A stretch of 64,000 nt of DNA from a virus. Its lineage: Duplodnaviria > Heunggongvirae > Uroviricota > Caudoviricetes. The stretch lies in the IMG/VR virus record IMGVR_UViG_3300045988_007243, one strand, 5' to 3'. The notes beneath the pieces are model-generated. The model was not told the DNA's origin. It ran no database searches and saw only the letters and a list, made by a program, of their open reading frames with translations. The position numbers and the translations under genes are program-made. Below, piece after piece: positions 26,794 through 46,994 of the stretch; position 1 is the stretch's first letter; each line of letters opens with the position of its first letter.

Positions 26794-27351
26794 TTATTTT
26801 TTCTTACAATTGTCAAAATGATATCGAGTCATGTTACCAGCACCACCAGTCATACCACAATGAGGGCAAGTTTTCTTTTTCTTTGGCTTTTTTCCGGCTT
26901 CTGACATCTTCTTCCTTGTTTCTATAGACCTTTTACAACCTTTTGATTTTGTATTGCCTATTTGAGATTCTCCTAATCGTCTTCGATGTTCTTCAGTGAA
27001 AACCCTACCTTTATTCACAATAGATAAAGCTTTCGAGTTCAAAGCTCTTACCTTTTCATAGTCTCTGGATGATATTTTCCTATCTAGGCCATCATGAGCT
27101 AACCTGTTCCATGCAAACCATAACTTATGATTGTTTGGATACATCTTAACCAGTAATTTATGAGCTATATAATGCTCTCTAGGTGTAAGCAAAGCAATAT
27201 TATCTCCACTAATTTTATCTCCACCTAGACATACTGGTATGATATGGTGTCTTTCATAACCCTTACCTTGACATTTGTAGTATGTAAGAGGCACACCCCT
27301 TTCAGAATGTGCCTTCTTAATAATTGCATTATATATTAGTTCGTAATTCAT
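26794..27351 (-). CDS. Free-standing HNH homing endonuclease with NUMOD3-like repeats
   Basis: YERHHIIPVCLGGDKISGDNIALLTPREHYIAH HNH core; C-terminal FTEEHRRRLGESQIGNTKSKG repeat and basic zinc-finger tail; sits immediately downstream of nrdD. Confidence 0.65.
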   Translation of the reverse strand: MNYELIYNAIIKKAHSERGVPLTYYKCQGKGYERHHIIPVCLGGDKISGDNIALLTPREHYIAHKLLVKMYPNNHKLWFAWNRLAHDGLDRKISSRDYEKVRALNSKALSIVNKGRVFTEEHRRRLGESQIGNTKSKGCKRSIETRKKMSEAGKKPKKKKTCPHCGMTGGAGNMTRYHFDNCKKK

Positions 27352-27358
27352 TTGTATG

Positions 27359-28306
27359 CTACATAGAAACCCTATCCTTAATTTCTGCCATCTTAGCGTC
27401 ATTCATTCGAGACTGACCTTTAATTTTTGTGAATGACAAGTACCCGCACACCCTGTTAATCACAGAGATATCATGTGAATGGCAAACCTCACATTCTTCA
27501 ACATCAGCCTTTGGTCTGTTACCACAATGTTCACAGATTGCTAAGTCAAAGTTAAGCCCTTGATAAAAACCTTTCAACATCCCTCTTGTAATACAACTTT
27601 TAAGTGCTGGTAAGTTTTCTGGGTTAGCTACCCTTACATACTGGATTCTGCCACCTCTACAGATATGGAAGAATGGCTCTTCTAATTCCTGCTTCTCAAA
27701 TGGTGAGATGTTTGCTGCAACATTCATATGGAAACTGTTTGTAAAGTATTCCTTGTCAGAAACGCCTTTAATAACACCAAACATATCTCTGAACTGTTTT
27801 AGCTGAGTTCCACACAATGACTCTGCTGGAGTGCCATATACTGCATACAGGAAGCCATCTTCATTCTTAAACTCTTCAGTTTTCATGTTAATGTATGCCA
27901 GAACATCGTATGCAAAACTGGAACTTCCAACTTCATGAAGTCGTTTACCTTCAGCAAGAACAGATAACTCATCAAGAGCAGTAACCCCAAAAGAAGCTGT
28001 GAAGGACTTCACAATATCCCAACCAACCTTGTCAGTAGGCTTCTTAGTCCCTTTATACAGACCACCTTGTGTGAATGCAAGAGGGTTAGAACTTGCTGGC
28101 ATATTGGCAATCATTTCGTAACGTTTCTTATGGAAGCTGCGAATCATTTCTAGGTACTTATCAAGCTCTTTCCAGAAATCTAAACCATTCTCTTTAGAAT
28201 ACTGGTAAATCATTGGTAAGTTCAAAGATACAGCACCAATGTTAGCACGACCTACATAAAACTCTTCACCATATTCGTTATGGTATGGTGATAAAAATGC
28301 TCTACA
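27359..28306 (-). CDS. nrdD: Anaerobic ribonucleoside-triphosphate reductase, exon 2
   Basis: In-frame continuation CRAFLSPYHNEYGEEFYVGRANIGAVSLNLP... matches NrdD (E. coli PMGCRSFL...GVVSLNLPRIA); C-terminal CEHCG...CEVCHSHD...RVCGYLS glycyl-radical region. Confidence 0.8.
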   Translation of the reverse strand, partial: CRAFLSPYHNEYGEEFYVGRANIGAVSLNLPMIYQYSKENGLDFWKELDKYLEMIRSFHKKRYEMIANMPASSNPLAFTQGGLYKGTKKPTDKVGWDIVKSFTASFGVTALDELSVLAEGKRLHEVGSSSFAYDVLAYINMKTEEFKNEDGFLYAVYGTPAESLCGTQLKQFRDMFGVIKGVSDKEYFTNSFHMNVAANISPFEKQELEEPFFHICRGGRIQYVRVANPENLPALKSCITRGMLKGFYQGLNFDLAICEHCGNRPKADVEECEVCHSHDISVINRVCGYLSFTKIKGQSRMNDAKMAEIKDRVSM

Positions 28307-29048
28307 CTTGTTGTTCAGGTAAGTTCGCTAAGCTTACCCCGCTTTATTCAAGCTGCTTACTGTCGCCAGTAAGTCCAGACTATATCTTCTACTTATTTCT
28401 AAGTAGCGTACCATTTCGAGTCGCTTGACCCTACACCGCTACATTCATCACGGTTAGTCGTTCGGCATTTAGATGTATTCAAACTCATATTCGAAGTTAT
28501 TATGCTCTTTTACACCCTTCAATATTGAAGAGATGGTCTTGCGATTGTGTCCAAGTATATTGGATAACTCTCGTATTGACTTAGTAACAATAACTTCCTT
28601 TGTCACTTTGTGTGTGGCTTTCACGGCATATGAACGCTTGTGGAACTTGTAGCACCCGTTCTCATAACCTTCTTTAGCATTCTCAGAATGAGTACCCCAT
28701 TCTAAGTTGGATGCGTGGTTATTTAGTTTGTTATCGTCCTTATGTTTTACAATTGGAAGATTATTTGGGTTAGGTACATATTTCTCAGCAACTAACCTGT
28801 GGACATACATGTCACGATTCTTCTTACCGTAAAACCTCACTTTCATATACCCAGTGTTGGATTTCCACTGCGTAAGCTCTACACCATTTTCCCTAAAGAC
28901 TTTTCCATCTTCAGTGACGTGATAGTTTGGCATGTAAGACTCCTATGTTGTATAGTTTCTTACATCGTACATCATTTAGCACAGGATTGTCTACATCTGT
29001 AGAGTTTCCCTGTTTAGGCACGTTTTAGATGAGCTATAGAGCCTGTTA
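28307..29048 (-). other. Group I intron (td-like core) interrupting nrdD
   Basis: Minus-strand sense begins UAACAGGC...CCUAAACAGGGAAACUCUACAGAUGUAGACAAUCCUGUGCUAAAUG and ends ...GUAGGGUCAAGCGACUCGAAAUG...AGAUAUAGUCUGG...GGGGUAAGCUUAGCGAACUUACCUGAACAACAAG, closely matching recalled T4 td intron core elements; exon 1 ends with U, intron ends with G. Confidence 0.75.
28469..28933 (-). CDS. Intron-encoded HNH homing endonuclease
   Basis: MPNYHVTEDGKVF...SNTGYMKVRF...HRLVAEKYVPNP...NLEWGTHSEN pattern typical of HNH_3-family intron endonucleases; lies wholly within the nrdD intron with its own AGGAG RBS. Confidence 0.7.
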   Translation of the reverse strand: MPNYHVTEDGKVFRENGVELTQWKSNTGYMKVRFYGKKNRDMYVHRLVAEKYVPNPNNLPIVKHKDDNKLNNHASNLEWGTHSENAKEGYENGCYKFHKRSYAVKATHKVTKEVIVTKSIRELSNILGHNRKTISSILKGVKEHNNFEYEFEYI

Positions 29049-30245
29049 ACCCATCGGCGAAATAACCTTGCCAGAACGCTCAAAAGCCTCTGCTACAGCA
29101 CCATGACCAGATACACTTAAGAAATCTGGATACATAGCTTTAGAGCAACACTCAATAGCTTTACTGTACAGGTGACCTTGACAGATATTTTCATCATGTC
29201 TCTTCTGGTCATAAATATAAACCAGTTTAGGGAATACAACAGGCTTCTTACTCTTACCTTGTCCATTCATGCGAACATCAAGAATGGTGTTTGCAATCAT
29301 GTATTGCAGTCGGTTGTCTTCATTAGACATATCTGAGTCGAGCAACCCAAATGTTAAAGTTGTGAATGCGAAATCACCACGGCTGCAAGGTACAGTGTTC
29401 AGTTTCATTTCAAGTGACTGAAAACCTTGAGTTAATTCAATCTGTAGCTGCTCCATGACATAATTATGGTAATGTTCTTTAGGAATACCATAAGATGCTG
29501 CTTTCTCAGCATGATAGCGTAGAGACTTCTTAGCATACGGTACAAGCACCTTATCAATCTCTGCTAAAGTAAATCCACCAAATTGCTGTGCAGTTGCTGA
29601 AAGAACTACATCACCAATAACCTGTAAGGCTGACAGCACAGACTTCGGTTCACAGTATTCGATGCCAGACATCTCAAAGCCACCTTTCAGTACTTTACCA
29701 ATGTCAAACAAGCAACAGTTAATGCCGCCAAAAATCAGGTCTCTTAAATCGTGGATATAGATAAACCCTTTTTCAATGGCTTCAAGTTCCTCTGGTGTTA
29801 AATGGTACTGCTTAAAGATTTCTTTAGTCAGGTAACCACGAATAATTGAACCTTTTGTAGAAATTAAACTGCTGTCAAAGTTAGCGTTTTCACGGTCACC
29901 TAAGAAGAGCGTGTCTCTAGTCTTTTGGTAAAGCTCATCCCAATTTTGAGCAACCTCTTTCCGGTAATTTCTGTATGTTGAGTAAGACTCATAAATCTCG
30001 TGATTGACTTCTGCCAAAGCACCCTCAACAATGCTGTGAATATCATTGACTGAGATGAGTAAATTATTCTGCTTAGTGGACTTTACCAGAATCCTCATAA
30101 ATGCTGACTCAAGAGCTTGGGTAACATCTGGTGGGAGTTCTTTATATCCAACCCTGTTAGCTGACTTAGTTACTGCTGCTAAAACTTTTTTGATATCAGG
30201 TTCTTCAAGTGAGCCATTCTTTTTAATAATCTGTACTTTGTTCAT
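29049..30245 (-). CDS. nrdD: Anaerobic ribonucleoside-triphosphate reductase, exon 1
   Basis: N-terminal NrdD region ending ...VISPMG; the track stop codon (29046-29048) is the first triplet of the intron. Confidence 0.8.
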
Positions 30246-43174: not shown

Positions 43175-43431
43175 GTAAGCCTCTTTTAAGTAACTATTAA
43201 GTTTTAATCTTTTATCTTAACGTATTCTATACGTTATACTTTAAAGCTTTTTAAAAGCTATTAAATAATCTTTTAAGAGTTTTAAAGTATCTGTATAGTT
43301 AAACTGTTAAGTAACCTTTTAAGTAAAAACCCACTTCGCAAAGATTAACACCTTGTCAAGTACATTGTCAACTTGCTTTTTATAATTTTTTGCAGTAATG
43401 TATGAGGTTAATGATTTTAGAGGGAGTAAAA
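43175..43431. promoter_or_regulatory. Divergent intergenic control region (promoters for the DNA polymerase and the leftward operon)
   Basis: AT-rich, TTGTCA and TATAAT hexamers near 43350-43385, SD AGGGAG before ATG 43432; contains CTTTTAAG/CTGTTAAG words like the 5810-7436 region. Confidence 0.4.
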
Positions 43432-45574
43432 ATGGAAAACGTAGATTTTAAAAACTTACATTTAGTTGGTGATACAGAAACTGATGGTTTACTCCTTGAG
43501 TTCACTAAAGTGCACGTAATGGCTTTTGCAGACTATAAATCTGACGATGAAGAGCCACCTGTATGGGTCTTTACAGATGAGCCTATCCTCGGTCACAAGT
43601 ATACCAAGTACATCAAGGGCGGCTTACGTGAAGGTATTGAGTTTGCGTTAAAGGCAAAACGTCTTTGCATCCATAACGGTCTCGGTTATGACTGGTGGGT
43701 TTTCAATCACATTGCACCTGATTTATGGAACTTTGATAATCCAAAGTGTAAGCCGTGGAGTAATTTCTTTCAGGATTCTCTTATCCAGTCTCGTGTTCAG
43801 TGGATGGATAGGCCAACTCCAAAGGGTTATAAAGGTGCTCATGGTTTGGCTGCATGGGGTGCTCGTGTTGGTGTTCGTAAACCAGAGATTGAACATTGGG
43901 GTGTGTGGAATGCAGAAATCTTCACTCGTGTTGTAGAAGATATCCGTATTAACGCCAAAACTAAACGGGCACTTGATAACGAGTATCTCAAGCTTAAGAA
44001 GTGTGGTATAGACACTTATGAAACCTACATGCGAGCTAAAGAAACATCTTTCTGGATGAGTCAACAGGCTATCAATGGTTGGAAAGCTGATAAAGAACTT
44101 ATGGAGTTCCATGTAAAGGAACTTGACAAGTTGACTAATGAGCTTGCTTCAGAGGTTGAACCACATCTACCACCAACTATTAAGACCAAAGGTAAAGTAA
44201 CTGGTGAAGAGTTTGCAAAGGCTTGGAATGAGTATGTTGAAACATTTGGTCATGCAGATGGACTGAAGAGGATTACCAAGTACCCTAAAACAAAGTATCG
44301 TCAGCAGGTACGTAACGGTGAGATGCAGACATACGAAATCAAGCCATTTGGTAAGCCAACTACAAAGATTTTTAACATTGAAAAAAGGAATTGCTATACA
44401 CCAACCAACTCTGTAACTGGTGAAGAGTACAAGGAAGGCTTTGTAGCAATGAAGGATGCTCGTGCAATTTGCAATGAGTTGAACGCAAAGATTGGTAAGA
44501 AATGCAAAGACTGGAAGCCAGTAAAAACAGTCAAAACTGTGAAGTACTATAACAGCCACGTTGTTAACCACTTTGAACTTGAGTCAAGTCGCTACACAGG
44601 TTTGATTGATGCACCATATACACCAATTGAGTTTGAAGTTTCTCGTATGACTCAGGTAGCAGTTGTTAAAGACTACTTGAAATCAGTTGGTTGGATTCCA
44701 GATGACTGGAACTACAAGAAAGACTCTGATGGTCGCCCTGTCAAAGTTTGTCGTTTCAAAGACAATAAAAAGATGATTACAAAGCATCCTAAGTGGCAGG
44801 AAATGGTTGAGCGGTGTGGTTTGAGTTATGTTGAACACGAAGGCGTCCAGTACATTGAGCATAACTGGTCTGTGAAGAAGTACACAGATTTGCTTGAGCC
44901 TTGCTTAATCCGTACTTCACCAAAACTTACTGAATCATCTTACGATACGATTGAAGGTGAGCTTGGACAGAAGATTGCTAAATACTACACTTTGATGCAC
45001 CGACGCAGAACTATTGAGAACTCAAAGGATGATGAAAAAGGTTGGTTGAACCAGATTCGTCCTGATGGTCGCCTTAGTGCTGGTGCAATGGTGTTTGGTA
45101 CTTCAACTGGACGTATGACACAATATGGTATTGTAAACGTACCGTCTGGTGCTGCTGTCTATGGAGCACCTATGAGGGAGGTTTGGACTTGTGAAGAGGG
45201 TACTAATATTGTTTCAGCCGACATGAATAGCGCCCAACTTGTGCTACTGTGTAACTTTATGGGTGATAAAGATTTCACTAAAGCGGTGACAGAGGGTAAA
45301 GAAGAGGTTGAGTTTGTCAAACAAGAGGATGGTAGATACTATTGCAAACATTTTGACCAGTATCTAAACCCAGCTATTGACAAGTATTTACATTATGATT
45401 CTGAAAATGACTTATACGTGGTGTACTCAGGGACTGATGCACATACTTTGAATAGTATCTACTTCAGTCTTAATAAAGAGGAAGACATCTTGACATGTCG
45501 AGCTACTCAGGATACAAGTCTTCTTCAAGAAATTAGTAAAGGTCGTAAGAAAGCCAAAAATGGCATCTATGCGT
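43432..45574 (+). CDS. DNA polymerase, family A T7-like, exon 1 (3'-5' exonuclease and polymerase N-terminal part)
   Basis: Exo I motif VGDTETDGL near the N-terminus; ends inside motif B at ...RKKAKNGIYA; remainder of the track ORF (to 45615) is intron sequence. Confidence 0.75.
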
Positions 45575-46376
45575 CAGTGGCGCATGTAAAACGTTGTGAA
45601 TTGCTGGAAGCCTAAGTCTGTAAAGATATGGTAATCAGCAGCGAAGTCTCCGTTAGGACTCCTAAAACAAAGGAGAGAGACAATGGCAGGTTACGAAGAG
45701 AGATTATGCACTGAGTGTGGTACGGAGTTTAAACCATATCAATACAATCAGAAACGGTGCAGAAGTTGTGTATTAAAGTTTGACAGAAGGGCAGAACACA
45801 GGGTTCTTACTAAGAAATGCCCTAGTTGTGAGAAGGTGTTCATGCCGAGAACAGCAAGGCAAGTTTATTGTTCGTCACATTGCGGTGAGAAAGGTAGAGT
45901 TAAGAATTACTACCTAAGAACATATGGATTGGAAAGAGAAGAGGTTGAGTCTCTACTCCGTGACTGTGATTACAAATGTCAAATTTGTGGCGGCGAAGGT
46001 TTTATCATGAATGGTTCACGACACAAGGCTAAACTTGTTGTTGACCATGACCATAAAACCGGAAAGGTAAGAGGTATGTTATGCCACAATTGCAACAGAG
46101 CTTTGGGGTTGCTTGCAGATAGTGTTGATAACATGCAAAGAGCGATTGACTATCTAAGCAAATGATATAACTATAGAGATTCCTAACAGAGAAACGTTCA
46201 GAGACTATCGAAAAGCATACTTAACGTATGAACTGAGTAGAGTAGGGTGGTAAGCTAATGACCATCCCCAAGTGCAACGGTAGCATCACTGCTACGTGAT
46301 ATAGTCCGACACTCCGTAGAAATGCGGAGAAGTTCATAAGAGAACTGGTACACCTTGCGAGTGTATTGACCAGATG
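45575..46376 (+). other. Intron (group I-like) interrupting the DNA polymerase gene in motif B
   Basis: Frame breaks after IYA and resumes as LFGAGDEK; 3' region has R-like GUUCAGAGACUA and S-like GAUAUAGUCCGAC elements; exon 1 ends in U, intron ends in G; boundaries approximate (two alternative 5' sites six nt apart). Confidence 0.6.
45683..46165 (+). CDS. Intron-encoded HNH endonuclease
   Basis: Zinc-ribbon N-terminus (CTECG...CRSC...CPSC...CSSHC) and HNH core LVVDHDHKTGKVRGMLCHNCNRALG. Confidence 0.7.
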   Translation: MAGYEERLCTECGTEFKPYQYNQKRCRSCVLKFDRRAEHRVLTKKCPSCEKVFMPRTARQVYCSSHCGEKGRVKNYYLRTYGLEREEVESLLRDCDYKCQICGGEGFIMNGSRHKAKLVVDHDHKTGKVRGMLCHNCNRALGLLADSVDNMQRAIDYLSK

Positions 46377-46933
46377 TATTGTTCGGGGCTGGCGATGAGA
46401 AATTTGCTAAGACGATTAAAGCATCTACAACTGAGGAAGGTGCTTTAACTAAGCAAACATACTTTGTACGTCTCCCTAAAATTAAGAAGTTGATAGATAA
46501 TTTAGAAGCAGACTTCAAAGCCACTAAGAAGGCTCTTGAAGAGGTATTTGGTAAGACTGCCGCAATCTCTAAAGGGGGGTTTGTAAAGGTTGCTGGAGCT
46601 TGGTTGTGGTGTAAATCTCCACATAAGTTATTGAATTATTTGCTTATGGGTTCGGAAAGTCAGGTTCAGAATGAAGCCATCAACCTCGCTTGTAGAAGAA
46701 CTTGTGAAGAGGGTCTTACAAAGTTGAATGGTCGAAAACCAGCTATTGGTGCTAGATTGCTTTTAGCATATCACGATGAGAATAGTTGGGAGTGTCCAGA
46801 AGACATGACGCAGGATGTTAAAGCAGTAATTGACTGGATGTATGGTCAAGCGTCAAGAAATTTAGGGCTTAAGGAGGAAACGCTTGTAACTGGTACTGGT
46901 AAAGTTGGTAAAAATTGGCTTGAAGTACACTGA
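46377..46933 (+). CDS. DNA polymerase, family A T7-like, exon 2 (C-terminal palm/fingers)
   Basis: LFGAGDEKFAKTI..., SPHKLLNYLL, YHDENSWEC, GTGKVGKNWLEVH align with the T7 gp5 C-terminus (YGAGDEKIG, SPHAALNTLL, VHDEIQVGC, EGKMGPNWAICH). Confidence 0.75.
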
Positions 46934-46994
46934 TTAGTATTGACAAGGTGCTCATGGAAGAGTACCTTATACAATATCTTATATAGGAGGCTAT

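Follow-up and report, generated by a model that had tools for sequence, protein, structure and literature searches.

A probable mobile group I intron with an Endo VII-motif endonuclease gene interrupts motif B of the family A DNA polymerase gene in a Felixounavirus genome

Introduction

The closest described counterparts of the element analyzed here are found in Escherichia phage JH2, phage EC6 and Salmonella phage FSL SP-010, where Fang et al. (2018, PMC6083498) listed the homologous endonucleases with the Endo VII motif as encoded by introns. An intron without an ORF has also been mentioned in the polymerase gene of Salmonella phage Meda (PMC6486253). Neither report gives a secondary structure, a splice junction or an experiment for the Felixounavirus intron. 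The window, that is, the whole stretch of 64,000 nucleotides that was analyzed, corresponds to a Felixounavirus (Felix O1-like) genome, with 97.6% identity to Escherichia phage HK3 and 97.2% to JH2. The genus, the gene and the insertion point are all as in JH2, EC6 and FSL SP-010, with no difference of substance; in the polymerase region, identity amounts to 97.2% with JH2 and to 88% with EC6 and FSL SP-010. The element is already known bioinformatically, and the window carries the same element in another isolate.

Other introns in phage polymerase genes have been described in PMC3428280. Like the one in the window, they reside in family A polymerases, show an IA2 architecture without P2, and have P7.1/P7.2 and an ORF with its own ribosome-binding site (RBS) in P6a; the upstream exon ends in a U that is paired with G, and the last base of the intron is a G. 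In E. coli Pol I numbering, they are inserted at 881 (PhiI and W31), 674 (Pf-WMP3, SPO1 and Bastille) and 676 (phiL7) (PMC3428280), whereas the site of the window intron, at about 764 in motif B, is absent among these positions. Moreover, canonical HNH endonucleases are encoded by those introns and their self-splicing has been shown, while the window encodes an Endo VII-motif endonuclease and its splicing is predicted.

Introns that also interrupt RxxxKxxxYxxxYG, and whose endonucleases are likewise of the Endo VII type, are known from Pseudomonas phage LUZ24 (Ceyssens et al., 2008), the Yersinia T7-like phages (Berlin type) and Pakpunavirus. Their 3' ribozyme parts are related to those of the window, but the polymerases that they interrupt are only distant relatives. 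The Pakpunavirus intron shares codon, phase and P1 geometry with the window, with one compensatory change. Reading of the sequences places the Yersinia intron 11 nt upstream of the window's site (after ACGUU of a Phe codon) and that of LUZ24 3–6 nt upstream, the distance varying with the alignment of a length difference of one residue. The endonuclease homologues are 51% (Yersinia phage) and 40% (Pakpunavirus) identical to that of the window.

Two further systems are of use for comparison. F-CphI of cyanophage S-PM2, a member of the DHHRN family, is free-standing beside the intron-containing psbA gene ("collaborative homing"), whereas the gene in the window lies inside the P6a loop; the activity of F-CphI has been shown, while the window endonuclease is known from sequence and its presumed target is the DNA polymerase gene. 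The td, nrdB and nrdD introns of T4 are, like that of the window, subgroup IA introns of an enterobacterial myovirus with an endonuclease ORF looped out from a peripheral helix (P6a in td). They differ in their host genes, in the presence of P2 and in their endonucleases, which are of the GIY-YIG type for I-TevI and I-TevII and of the HNH type for I-TevIII.

Results and Discussion

The Polymerase Exons and Their Junction

The insert is very probably a mobile group I intron, IA2-like and with a homing-endonuclease gene inside, that splits a family A polymerase gene within motif B (Table 1). When left unspliced, the polymerase ORF extends from 43402 to 45615: after ...RKKAKNGIYA, 13 unrelated codons (SVAHVKRCELLEA) lead to a UAA at 45613-45615. 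This break, and the return of the frame some 800 bp later as LFGAGDEK..., had been proposed from the sequence of the window in an original prediction, and both were found again, with the frame resuming from 46377 after an insert of 802 nt. The exonuclease domain, the thumb, motif A and, up to ...GRKKAKNGIYA, the first half of motif B are encoded by exon 1, whose last base opens a Leu codon. Exon 2 provides the last two bases of this codon, followed by LFGAGDEK... (second half of motif B), motif C and the stop codon. The insertion point therefore lies after the first base of the Leu codon in the O-helix (motif B), at about codon 764 of E. coli Pol I and codon 528 of T7 gp5.

TABLE 1. Coordinates of the polymerase exons, the intron, its helices and the endonuclease gene in the window.
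Feature	Coordinates	Strand	Evidence or remarks
Family A DNA polymerase, exon 1	43402-45574	+	ORF list; partial Pfam DNA_pol_A match; collinear with uninterrupted Alf5 and bumzen polymerases
P1	45568-45586	+	Exon UAUGCGU 45568-45574 pairs with internal guide GCGCAUG 45580-45586; Rfam alignment
Group I intron, 802 nt, IA2-like (P1, P3-P9.2, P7.1/P7.2; no P2)	45575-46376	+	0-nt gap in intron-less alleles; Rfam; sister introns
P3 5' strand; P4	45592-45598; 45602-45607 / 45635-45640 (within 45592-45642)	+	Rfam alignment, helix check
P5; P5a (GUAA loop); P6 5' strand	45610-45612 / 45630-45632; 45616-45619 / 45624-45627; 45641-45642	+	
P6a stem	45647-45658 / 46181-46192 (45647-46192)	+	Endonuclease gene in terminal loop
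Shine-Dalgarno AAGGAG	45670-45675	+	7 nt upstream of the ATG of the intron ORF
Intron-encoded endonuclease gene, 160 aa	45683-46165	+	Pfam PF02945; aligned to Hpy99I and T4 endonuclease VII
3' core half: P6 3'; P7 5' (G, bulged A, GACUA)	46196-46307: 46196-46197; G46201, A46202, 46203-46207	+	
P7.1; linker AACUGAGUAGAGUA; P7.2	46216-46220 / 46226-46230; 46245-46251 / 46261-46267	+	
P3 3'; P8; P7 3' (UAGUCC)	46273-46279; 46280-46285 / 46290-46295; 46302-46307	+	
P9 (GAAA loop); P9.1	46312-46318 / 46323-46329; 46332-46335 / 46342-46345 (within 46312-46376)	+	
P9.2; terminal G	46346-46353 / 46361-46372; G46376 (within 46312-46376)	+	
DNA polymerase, exon 2	46377-46933	+	ORF list; Pfam; ungapped T7 gp5 alignment over junction

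Joining of the two exons yields an in-frame ORF of 2730 nt (909 aa) containing GIYALLFGAGDEK. The same GIYALLFGAGDEK is read by the intron-less relatives, in which the gap is closed with zero extra bases. The comparison with uninterrupted homologues that had been suggested comprised 26 intron-less alleles (Alf5, bumzen and 24 IMG/VR contigs), and 0 nt were found between the equivalent flanks in every one of them. The boundaries are thereby exact, and those predicted earlier, with exon 1 ending in U45574 and the intron in G46376, hold; no other boundary restores the conserved ALL of ...YALLFG..., which a shift by one nucleotide (+1 or -1) would turn into ASL or AVL. The predicted junction in the spliced mRNA is ...AUCUAUGCGU/UAUUGUUCGGG... 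(the slash marks the junction, here and below), or ...TATGCGT/TATTGTTCGG... as DNA, and the peptide spanning it in the predicted polymerase is NGIYALLFGAGDEK. The corresponding intron-less site of Alf5 reads ...GGTATCTATGCAC/TGCTGTTCGGTGCAGG....

The spliced product was identical to the polymerases of Alf5 and bumzen (899–906 aa, uninterrupted) over GRKKAKNGIYALLFGAGDEKFAKTIKA, except for an S in place of A in bumzen (GRKKSKNG). Once the insert was removed, GRKKAKNGIYALLFGAG aligned without gaps to TRDNAKTFIYGFLYGAG of T7 gp5, leaving motif B (RxxxKxxxYxxxYG) continuous and of the same length as in T7, as had been anticipated. This ungapped alignment crosses the junction and covers residues 517–701 of T7 gp5, including the segment TRDNAKTFIYGFLYGAGDEK. 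In addition, the spliced product passed the Pfam DNA_pol_A cut-off (57.6 bits vs. 34.3 bits), whereas the separate exons, with 17.9 and 27.1 bits, both remained below it. With regard to the start codon, the polymerases of relatives are annotated from the equivalent of 43432 (MENVDF...) or 43411 (MILEGV...).

Two polymerase CDSs are annotated in many database records, a genome announcement speaks of "two genes encoding DNA polymerases" (PMC5968733), and a TTG codon at 46379 could formally serve as a start for exon 2. These points would agree with a truly split ("fractured") gene whose RNA stays unspliced and whose two parts are made as separate polypeptides that associate non-covalently, as in the Aeh1 nrdA gene split by mobE. 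Such an arrangement is nevertheless very improbable here: the break splits a codon after its first base, midway through the O-helix, and no Shine-Dalgarno-like sequence precedes the TTG. A site search between the exons, which might have favored two separate genes, detected no promoter-like or terminator-like sites there. The nature of the spacer, described in the next section, also argues against a split gene.

Three other readings, namely an intein, a programmed translational bypass and an artefact of sequencing or assembly, would account for the bare interruption of the reading frame and for nothing else, and the probability of any of them is close to nil. The insert is out of frame and contains stops in the polymerase frame, the first of them at 45613, which rules out an intein; its 802 nt are far longer than any known ribosomal bypass; and the recurrence of the same insert in dozens of independently sequenced phages rules out an artefact.

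Fold of the Group I Intron

The group I assignment was examined with Rfam, for which the curated threshold of RF00028 (group I intron) is 50 bits. No match was obtained on the whole window at the gathering threshold. Under permissive scoring, the window intron gave two partial matches of 24.8 bits (45495-45786, E = 6.9e-4) and 14.9 bits (46030-46329), both below 50 bits because the ORF of about 0.5 kb in P6a splits the match. Support at the threshold level therefore comes from the natural ORF-less sister introns of 268 and 311 nt, used as a proxy, which scored 62.1 and 62.9 bits (E = 1.5e-14 and 2.7e-14). Together with the Pfam result for the spliced product, these matches place the observation well outside chance. 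These sister introns are 97–99% identical to the ribozyme parts of the window, the Tf intron matching it at 83/84 and 191/196 bases. Scores of 92–94 bits were obtained for related introns of N4-like phages, and of 40.5 bits for that of Pakpunavirus.

The folding proposed earlier for locating P1-P9 and the internal guide sequence was carried out, and all the helices could be mapped (Table 1). In the helix check, every helix from P1 to P9.2 was canonical in the window, among them P3-P8 of the core with the pseudoknot formed by P3 and P7, and the ribozyme core is complete. P1 consists of 7 bp and is closed at the 5' splice site by the wobble U45574.G45580. A P10 pairing is possible between the P1 loop CAGUG (45575-45579) and UAUUG at the start of exon 2 (46377-46381), and the last base of the intron, G46376, directly precedes exon 2. 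In the P6a stem, 11 of the 12 positions are paired, with one C.A mismatch in the window. The core-like elements noticed before, GUUCAGAGACUA at 46196-46207 and GAUAUAGUCC at 46298-46307, are in place and fit the RF00028 consensus for J6/7-P7 and P7', respectively. P7.1 (46216-46230) and P7.2 (46245-46267), separated by a GUA-containing linker, lie between P7 and P3', a feature of IA2. This assignment was made by matching features to the criteria of PMC3428280, and the intron is referred to as IA2-like.

Compensatory changes were found in ten helices (P1, P3, P4, P5, P5a, P6, P6a, P7, P8 and P9) by means of a hand-curated helix table that leans towards the structure and compares only six sequences. 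The MAFFT alignment of the six mini-introns was structurally wrong in P1, in P5 of Pakpunavirus and in the P7.2-P3'-P8 stretch; it was therefore used only for an unsupervised check with RNAalifold, alongside the hand-curated table. In this check P4, P5, P5a, P6, P6a, P7 and P9 were recovered, with double changes in 16 of 41 pairs. Examples of compensatory changes are UAUGGGU paired with GCCCAUG in P1 of the Pakpunavirus homologue, U-A to C-G in P6a of BPS15S6, G-C to A-U in P7 of Pakpunavirus and C-G to U-A in P8 of Tf. P9 likewise showed compensatory changes, both by RNAalifold and in the table.

These results bear on the idea of a split gene, since a mere insertion scar would not account for an entire group I ribozyme in the spacer, with 97–99% conservation even in the ORF-less forms of 268 and 311 nt. 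Furthermore, the end of the exon pairs with the intron in P1, and in Pakpunavirus this helix has changed together with the exon sequence.

The Intron-Encoded Endonuclease

An endonuclease ORF of the HNH type with its own RBS had been predicted in the insert. The ORF and its RBS (AAGGAG, 7 nt before the ATG) were corroborated, and so was its identity as an endonuclease gene, but not the HNH assignment: the ORF matched Endonuclease_7 (PF02945, E = 1.1e-19) together with two weak zinc-ribbon matches, and none of the HNH families (PF01844, HNH_3 and similar) was matched in Pfam at E ≤ 0.01. The protein has CxxC zinc-ribbon pairs in the N-terminal part and an Endo VII-type catalytic domain at the C-terminus (CQIC...VVDHDHKTGKVRGMLCHNCN). 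The signature of the Endo VII motif, CxxC...DHDH...R...CxxCN, occupies residues 98-138 of 160. Alignments over the catalytic residues were obtained with Hpy99I (E = 1.5e-5) and T4 endonuclease VII (E = 0.0046); these residues align with those of Hpy99I and with D40, H41, H43, R54 and N62 of T4 Endo VII, and D121, H122 and N138 are the equivalents of D40, H41 and N62.

The Endo VII-motif (DHHRN) and HNH families belong to a common beta-beta-alpha-metal superfamily. Proteins with the Endo VII motif are without the central Asn of HNH according to PMC6083498, the source of the signature criteria used here. As judged from its motifs, the endonuclease is classified as a member of the Endo VII-motif (DHHRN) family, other than canonical HNH.

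The ORF is full length in the window, all the catalytic and zinc-binding residues are present, and the protein is 100% identical to that of phage JH2, with 3-4 residues differing in the copies of two further loci (L033 and L035). This near-identity suggests recent spread or constraint, and the C-terminal position of the motif corresponds to the "endonuclease" clade, not the "resolvase" clade, of PMC6083498. All these features speak against the alternative that the intron splices while its endonuclease is no longer an active homing enzyme, being either a decaying passenger or co-opted for Holliday-junction resolution or for competition with co-infecting phages. Decay of the ORF in relatives (the gene is frameshifted in VpaE1 and entirely missing from Tf and BPS15S6) would fit this alternative, as would the catalytic domain, which is that of the T4 resolvase, and the intron endonuclease of PhiPA3, which is documented in phage-phage interference (PMC11620839). 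Loss or change of function is, on balance, unlikely for the copy in the window.

A hairpin between CUCCU (45659-45663) and AGGAG that might hide the endonuclease RBS was also considered. It appeared in the minimum-free-energy fold, yet its z value against shuffled sequences was -0.66, no better than theirs, and it carries no weight here.

Proposed Mechanism of Splicing and Homing

For the preferred reading, a mobile intron, the following course can be proposed. A single RNA would be transcribed from the polymerase gene and the intron would fold; an external guanosine would attack after U45574, held by P1 in the U.G wobble with G45580, and the freed exon 1 would then attack after G46376, aided by the P10 pairing. 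The joined exons would be the mRNA for one polymerase of 899–909 aa, depending on the start codon. The endonuclease would be translated from its own RBS in the P6a loop and, by analogy with other intron endonucleases, would cleave, close to the insertion site, those polymerase alleles of co-infecting relatives that have no intron. Repair templated on the intron-carrying genome would copy the intron together with a few flanking exon bases (homing). No splicing or cleavage experiments and no RNA or biochemical data for Felixounavirus were found in the literature searched, and the predicted activities of the intron and of the endonuclease therefore rest on homology; the putative target of the enzyme is likewise deduced.

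A wider reading can be put forward tentatively as a possible, although somewhat doubtful, combination of three parts: that an active intron-encoded Endo VII-motif enzyme homes to the O-helix at Pol I codon 764; that such endonuclease-intron pairs have repeatedly colonized motif B, at positions within about 11 nt of one another, in the widely differing family A polymerases of Felixounavirus, Pakpunavirus, LUZ24-like and Yersinia T7-like phages; and that four synonymous differences at the junction (GCA C/UG CUG vs. GCG U/UA UUG) serve both P1 pairing and self-immunity. The endonuclease might also have a role in competition among co-infecting Felix O1-like phages.

Dozens of Felix O1-like genomes, several of them from candidates for biocontrol or therapy, have been deposited as "two DNA polymerase genes plus endonuclease VII". 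Most likely, these genomes have a single polymerase gene that carries a mobile intron, and this reading affects gene counts, pangenome clustering and polymerase-based phylogenies. The genus offers a compact natural series of the life cycle of a homing element, including an active-looking endonuclease gene and a trimmed intron, and also holds an uncharacterized endonuclease with the Endo VII motif, from a family defined only recently. Neither the series nor the endonuclease changes current understanding. The element is a selfish one of an ordinary, reported kind.

Distribution and Traces of Mobility

The insert is carried by approximately 96 of 262 Felixounavirus-like database records. At the sampled loci, the site was empty in 26 cases, occupied by the intron with its ORF in five (one of them frameshifted) and by an ORF-less intron in three, and presence and absence alternate among near-identical phages. 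The insert measures 801–805 nt with an intact ORF and 780 nt with the frameshifted ORF of VpaE1. The forms without ORF have 311 nt in phage Tf, where about 20 nt of the P6a loop are left, and 268 nt in BPS15S6, where P6a is also trimmed and the entire helix is a 4-bp hairpin. Each stage is therefore seen among the relatives: the empty site, the intron with an intact gene, the frameshifted gene and the ORF-less intron.

The intron ends CAGUGG...CCAGAUG are common to the window and the eight other sampled intron-carrying alleles. The exon flanks were UAUGCGU/UAUUG in all nine intron-carrying alleles and UAUGCAC/UGCUG at most of the empty sites; the latter would give P1 an A.C mismatch and a C-G pair in place of U.G. 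Two intron-less loci (L015 and L022) have the intron-type upstream flank, GCGU, which may be a footprint of intron loss or the native sequence of a lineage.

A link between the intron state and a free-standing endonuclease gene on the downstream side of the polymerase gene, as in collaborative homing, was considered and discarded: no correlation was found, and short and long downstream gaps both occurred with and without the intron. Phage phiSUSP1 was only about 85% identical to the window at the DNA level over exon 1.

The interrupted polymerase gene and its boundaries

A database search with the polymerase region (43402-46933) returned 262 phage records, nearly all of them Felix O1-like myoviruses of Escherichia, Salmonella, Shigella and Citrobacter. 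Since this region matches such phages, the best being Escherichia phages HK3 (97.6% over 100%) and JH2 (97.2%), the window is assigned by sequence similarity to a Felixounavirus genome. The ORF 43402..45615 reads as a polymerase up to ...GRKKAKNGIYA and then passes into 13 unrelated codons that end at a UAA stop; the polymerase frame was found again at 46377 (LFGAGDEK...), continuing to 46933, just as described in the original prediction of a gene split by an HNH-carrying group I intron. Positions 93-184 of the Pfam DNA_pol_A profile were matched in the first piece and positions 218-380 in the last, and neither piece alone attained the Pfam threshold. Joining 45574 to 46377 produced an in-frame ORF of 2730 nt, and the product scored 57.6 bits against DNA_pol_A (threshold 34.3 bits) and aligned without gaps to T7 gp5 across the junction (GRKKAKNGIYALLFGAGDEKFAKTI versus TRDNAKTFIYGFLYGAGDEKIGQIV), restoring the T7-like motif B that had been expected of the spliced gene.

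The database matches sorted into length classes, with the insert or its ORF accounting exactly for the difference between them, and representatives of each class were fetched. The proposed comparison with uninterrupted homologues was borne out by Alf5 and bumzen, where a single unbroken polymerase gene was observed, with 0 nt between the flanks (...TATGCAC/TGCTGTTCGG..., the slash marking the insertion site). The inserts of BPS15S6 (268 nt) and Tf (311 nt) have the same ends as that of the window (CAGTGGCGCATG...ACCAGATG) and carry no ORF. A further 30 loci came from scanning IMG/VR: 24 intron-less, four with the intron and its ORF (disrupted in one of them), one with an ORF-less intron and one too truncated to classify. 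A one-base shift of the boundary in either direction would replace the conserved Ala-Leu-Leu by Ala-Ser-Leu or Ala-Val-Leu, so that 45574/45575 with 46376/46377 is, judged from the aligned sequences, the sole boundary that agrees with the relatives. The insert is missing from Felix O1 itself, in agreement with the polymerase of 906 aa and the absence of introns in its genome paper (PMC3185647).

Many records annotate two polymerase fragments, but their separate translation is unlikely: the break interrupts a codon of the O-helix, exon 2 is not preceded by a convincing ribosome-binding site, no promoter-like or terminator-like site was found between the exons, and the ribozyme in the spacer stays conserved after loss of the ORF. 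An intein, translational bypass or an artefact were ruled out by the stop codons, the insert length and its recurrence in independent genomes.

Structure of the predicted ribozyme

At the gathering threshold no Rfam match was obtained for the window; a permissive search matched two halves separately (24.8 and 14.9 bits), as expected because about 0.5 kb of coding sequence lies in a peripheral loop. The ORF-less inserts scored 62.1 and 62.9 bits against the group I intron model RF00028 (threshold 50; E about 1e-14), and the ribozyme parts of the window and Tf introns were identical at 83/84 and 191/196 positions. The insert is predicted to be a group I ribozyme. Its helices, from P1 with the guide sequence to P9, were placed on the window coordinates as had been proposed, and every pair was checked; P2 is absent from the mapped structure. 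The two P7-strand motifs of the original prediction were located at 46196-46207 and 46298-46307.

Coordinates of the intron helices and of features at the nrdD locus
Feature	Position	Strand	Remark
P1	45568-74 / 45580-86		U45574.G45580 wobble at splice site
P10 (possible)	45575-79 / 46377-81		5 bp
P3	45592-98 / 46273-79		
P4	45602-07 / 45635-40		
P5	45610-12 / 45630-32		
P5a	45616-19 / 45624-27		
P6	45641-42 / 46196-97		
P6a	45647-58 / 46181-92		one C.A mismatch
P7	G46201 + 46203-07 / 46302-07		A46202 bulged
P7.1	46216-20 / 46226-30		
P7.2	46245-51 / 46261-67		
P8	46280-85 / 46290-95		
P9	46312-18 / 46323-29		GAAA loop
P9.1	46332-35 / 46342-45		
P9.2	46346-53 / 46361-72		
Terminal G	46376		
nrdD, interrupted	27359..30245	minus	
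nrdD pieces	29046..30245 and 27359..28225	minus	
HNH-type ORF between nrdD pieces	28469..28933	minus	154 aa
202-aa ORF	26794..27402	minus	directly downstream of nrdD exon 2, overlapping its end

An unconstrained minimum-free-energy fold of the ORF-less intron recovered P1, P3, P4, P5, P5a, P6, P6a, P7.1, P7.2, P8, P9 and P9.1. The intron has P7.1 and P7.2 with a GUA-containing linker between them, the features taken as typical of subgroup IA2 for the polymerase introns of PhiI, W31 and Pf-WMP3 (PMC3428280).

Related introns were detected in the RNA polymerase gene of the N4-like phages ZQ2 and MIF8 (RF00028, 92-94 bits), in a Pakpunavirus DNA polymerase gene (40.5 bits, with ORF) and in a Yersinia T7-like phage (27 bits, with ORF). 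RNAalifold, run on an unsupervised alignment of six sequences, predicted P4, P5, P5a, P6, P6a, P7 and P9, with both sides changed and pairing kept in 16 of the 41 pairs, and a helix table added double changes in P1, P3 and P8; these counts come from few sequences, and the table is in part curated by hand. In P1 the guide tracks the exon: the window pairs exon GCG with guide GCGC, and Pakpunavirus pairs exon GGG with guide GCCC. In P8 a C-G pair of the window is U-A in Tf, and in P6a a U-A pair is C-G in BPS15S6.

The introns of ZQ2 (460-703, 92 bits) and MIF8 (2455-2702, 94 bits), with a closely related group I core, break an RNAP2-like gene, and an ORF of about 215 aa that carries no annotation lies after them. 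GenBank gives the flanking polymerase pieces as separate CDSs and annotates no intron.

The predicted intron-encoded endonuclease

The predicted intron ORF with its own ribosome-binding site corresponds to a 160-aa ORF (45683..46165) with AAGGAG 7 nt upstream, and its protein is 100% identical to that of JH2. Residues 79-159 matched Pfam Endonuclease_7 (E = 1.1e-19), and no HNH family was matched in the Pfam search of this ORF. The domain aligned to the restriction enzyme Hpy99I (E = 1.5e-5) and to T4 endonuclease VII (E = 0.0046) across CxxC, DHDH, R and CxxCN, and the N-terminal half holds two more CxxC...CxxC(x) pairs that presumably form zinc ribbons for DNA binding. The same architecture characterises the Endo VII-motif "endonuclease clade", named the DHHRN family by Fang et al. 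after F-CphI was characterised (PMC6083498). The earlier designation "HNH" is therefore right at the superfamily level and imprecise at the family level.

With this refinement every element of the original prediction was confirmed, and the insert is a real, correctly interpreted mobile group I intron of textbook type. The element had already been flagged in print in JH2, EC6 and FSL SP-010 (PMC6083498) and, without its ORF, in Meda (PMC6486253); in the literature searched, no experimental splicing or cleavage was shown for Felixounavirus. Added here are precise coordinates for the junction and the helices, evidence of covariation, a series of alleles with its flank pattern and a comparison of insertion sites; the chief practical value lies in fixing the widespread "two polymerase genes" annotation.

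Allele series and flanking sequences

The insert is present in about 96 of the 262 records. Its ORF varies across the sampled alleles: it is intact in the window and in loci L033, L035 and L036, frameshifted through a 22-nt deletion in phage VpaE1, cleanly deleted at a CTAA microhomology in Tf, and gone along with most of P6a in BPS15S6 and locus L037. The exon edges read UAUGCGU/UAUUG in 9/9 intron-carrying alleles, and most empty sites read UAUGCAC/UGCUG or UACGCCC/UGUUA; all of these differences are synonymous. A perfect P1 with its U.G wobble requires precisely the intron-type bases at -2 and -1. This pattern is compatible with flanking markers having been co-converted in the course of homing, and the intron-type flank possibly shields the intron-carrying allele from its own enzyme.

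Two intron-less IMG/VR contigs (L015 and L022) have the intron-type upstream flank UAUGCGU, followed by UACUG or UGCUG. These bases may be native to their lineage, may mark a potential donor or recipient site, or may have been left behind by a lost intron.

The spacer from the polymerase stop to the next conserved small gene was also compared between the window and loci L001-L004 and L009-L038. It measures 66 nt in the window (46934..46994) and about 270 nt or 570-800 nt in many relatives; in long-spacer relatives (Alf5, BPS15S6, Tf, bumzen) it contains a free-standing gene for an HNH or homing endonuclease. The filling of this second slot for an optional endonuclease shows no link with the intron state.

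Comparison of insertion sites

By alignment of the motif RRSAKAINFGLIYG with the E. coli Pol I sequence, the insertion falls in Pol I codon 764, phase 1, which lies in the O-helix between the equivalents of Phe762 and Tyr766. This site differs from those catalogued for polymerase introns, since 764 is not among 674, 676 and 881 (PMC3428280). Introns with homologous Endo VII-type endonucleases also lie in motif B at the same codon and phase in Pakpunavirus, 3-6 nt upstream in LUZ24 and 11 nt upstream in the Yersinia T7-like phage, as judged by P1 pairing and frame restoration.

Other features of the window

ARAGORN detected no tRNA genes in the whole 64-kb window; since Felix O1-like genomes carry about 22 (PMC3185647), the tRNA cluster must sit elsewhere in the genome, beyond the window.

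The anaerobic ribonucleotide reductase gene nrdD was also found interrupted. Its insert gave a partial RF00028 match (28356..28536, minus strand; 33.1 bits, E = 8e-6) that includes the motif GAUAUAGUCU, and probably represents another group I intron, one that encodes a homing endonuclease of its own. The JH2 annotation at this locus reads NrdD / HNH homing endonuclease / NrdD, and the Meda announcement likewise describes an HNH endonuclease interrupting nrdD (PMC6486253). The adjoining 202-aa ORF, the JH2 counterpart of which is annotated "homing endonuclease", appears to be a free-standing gene for such an enzyme beside the split nrdD.
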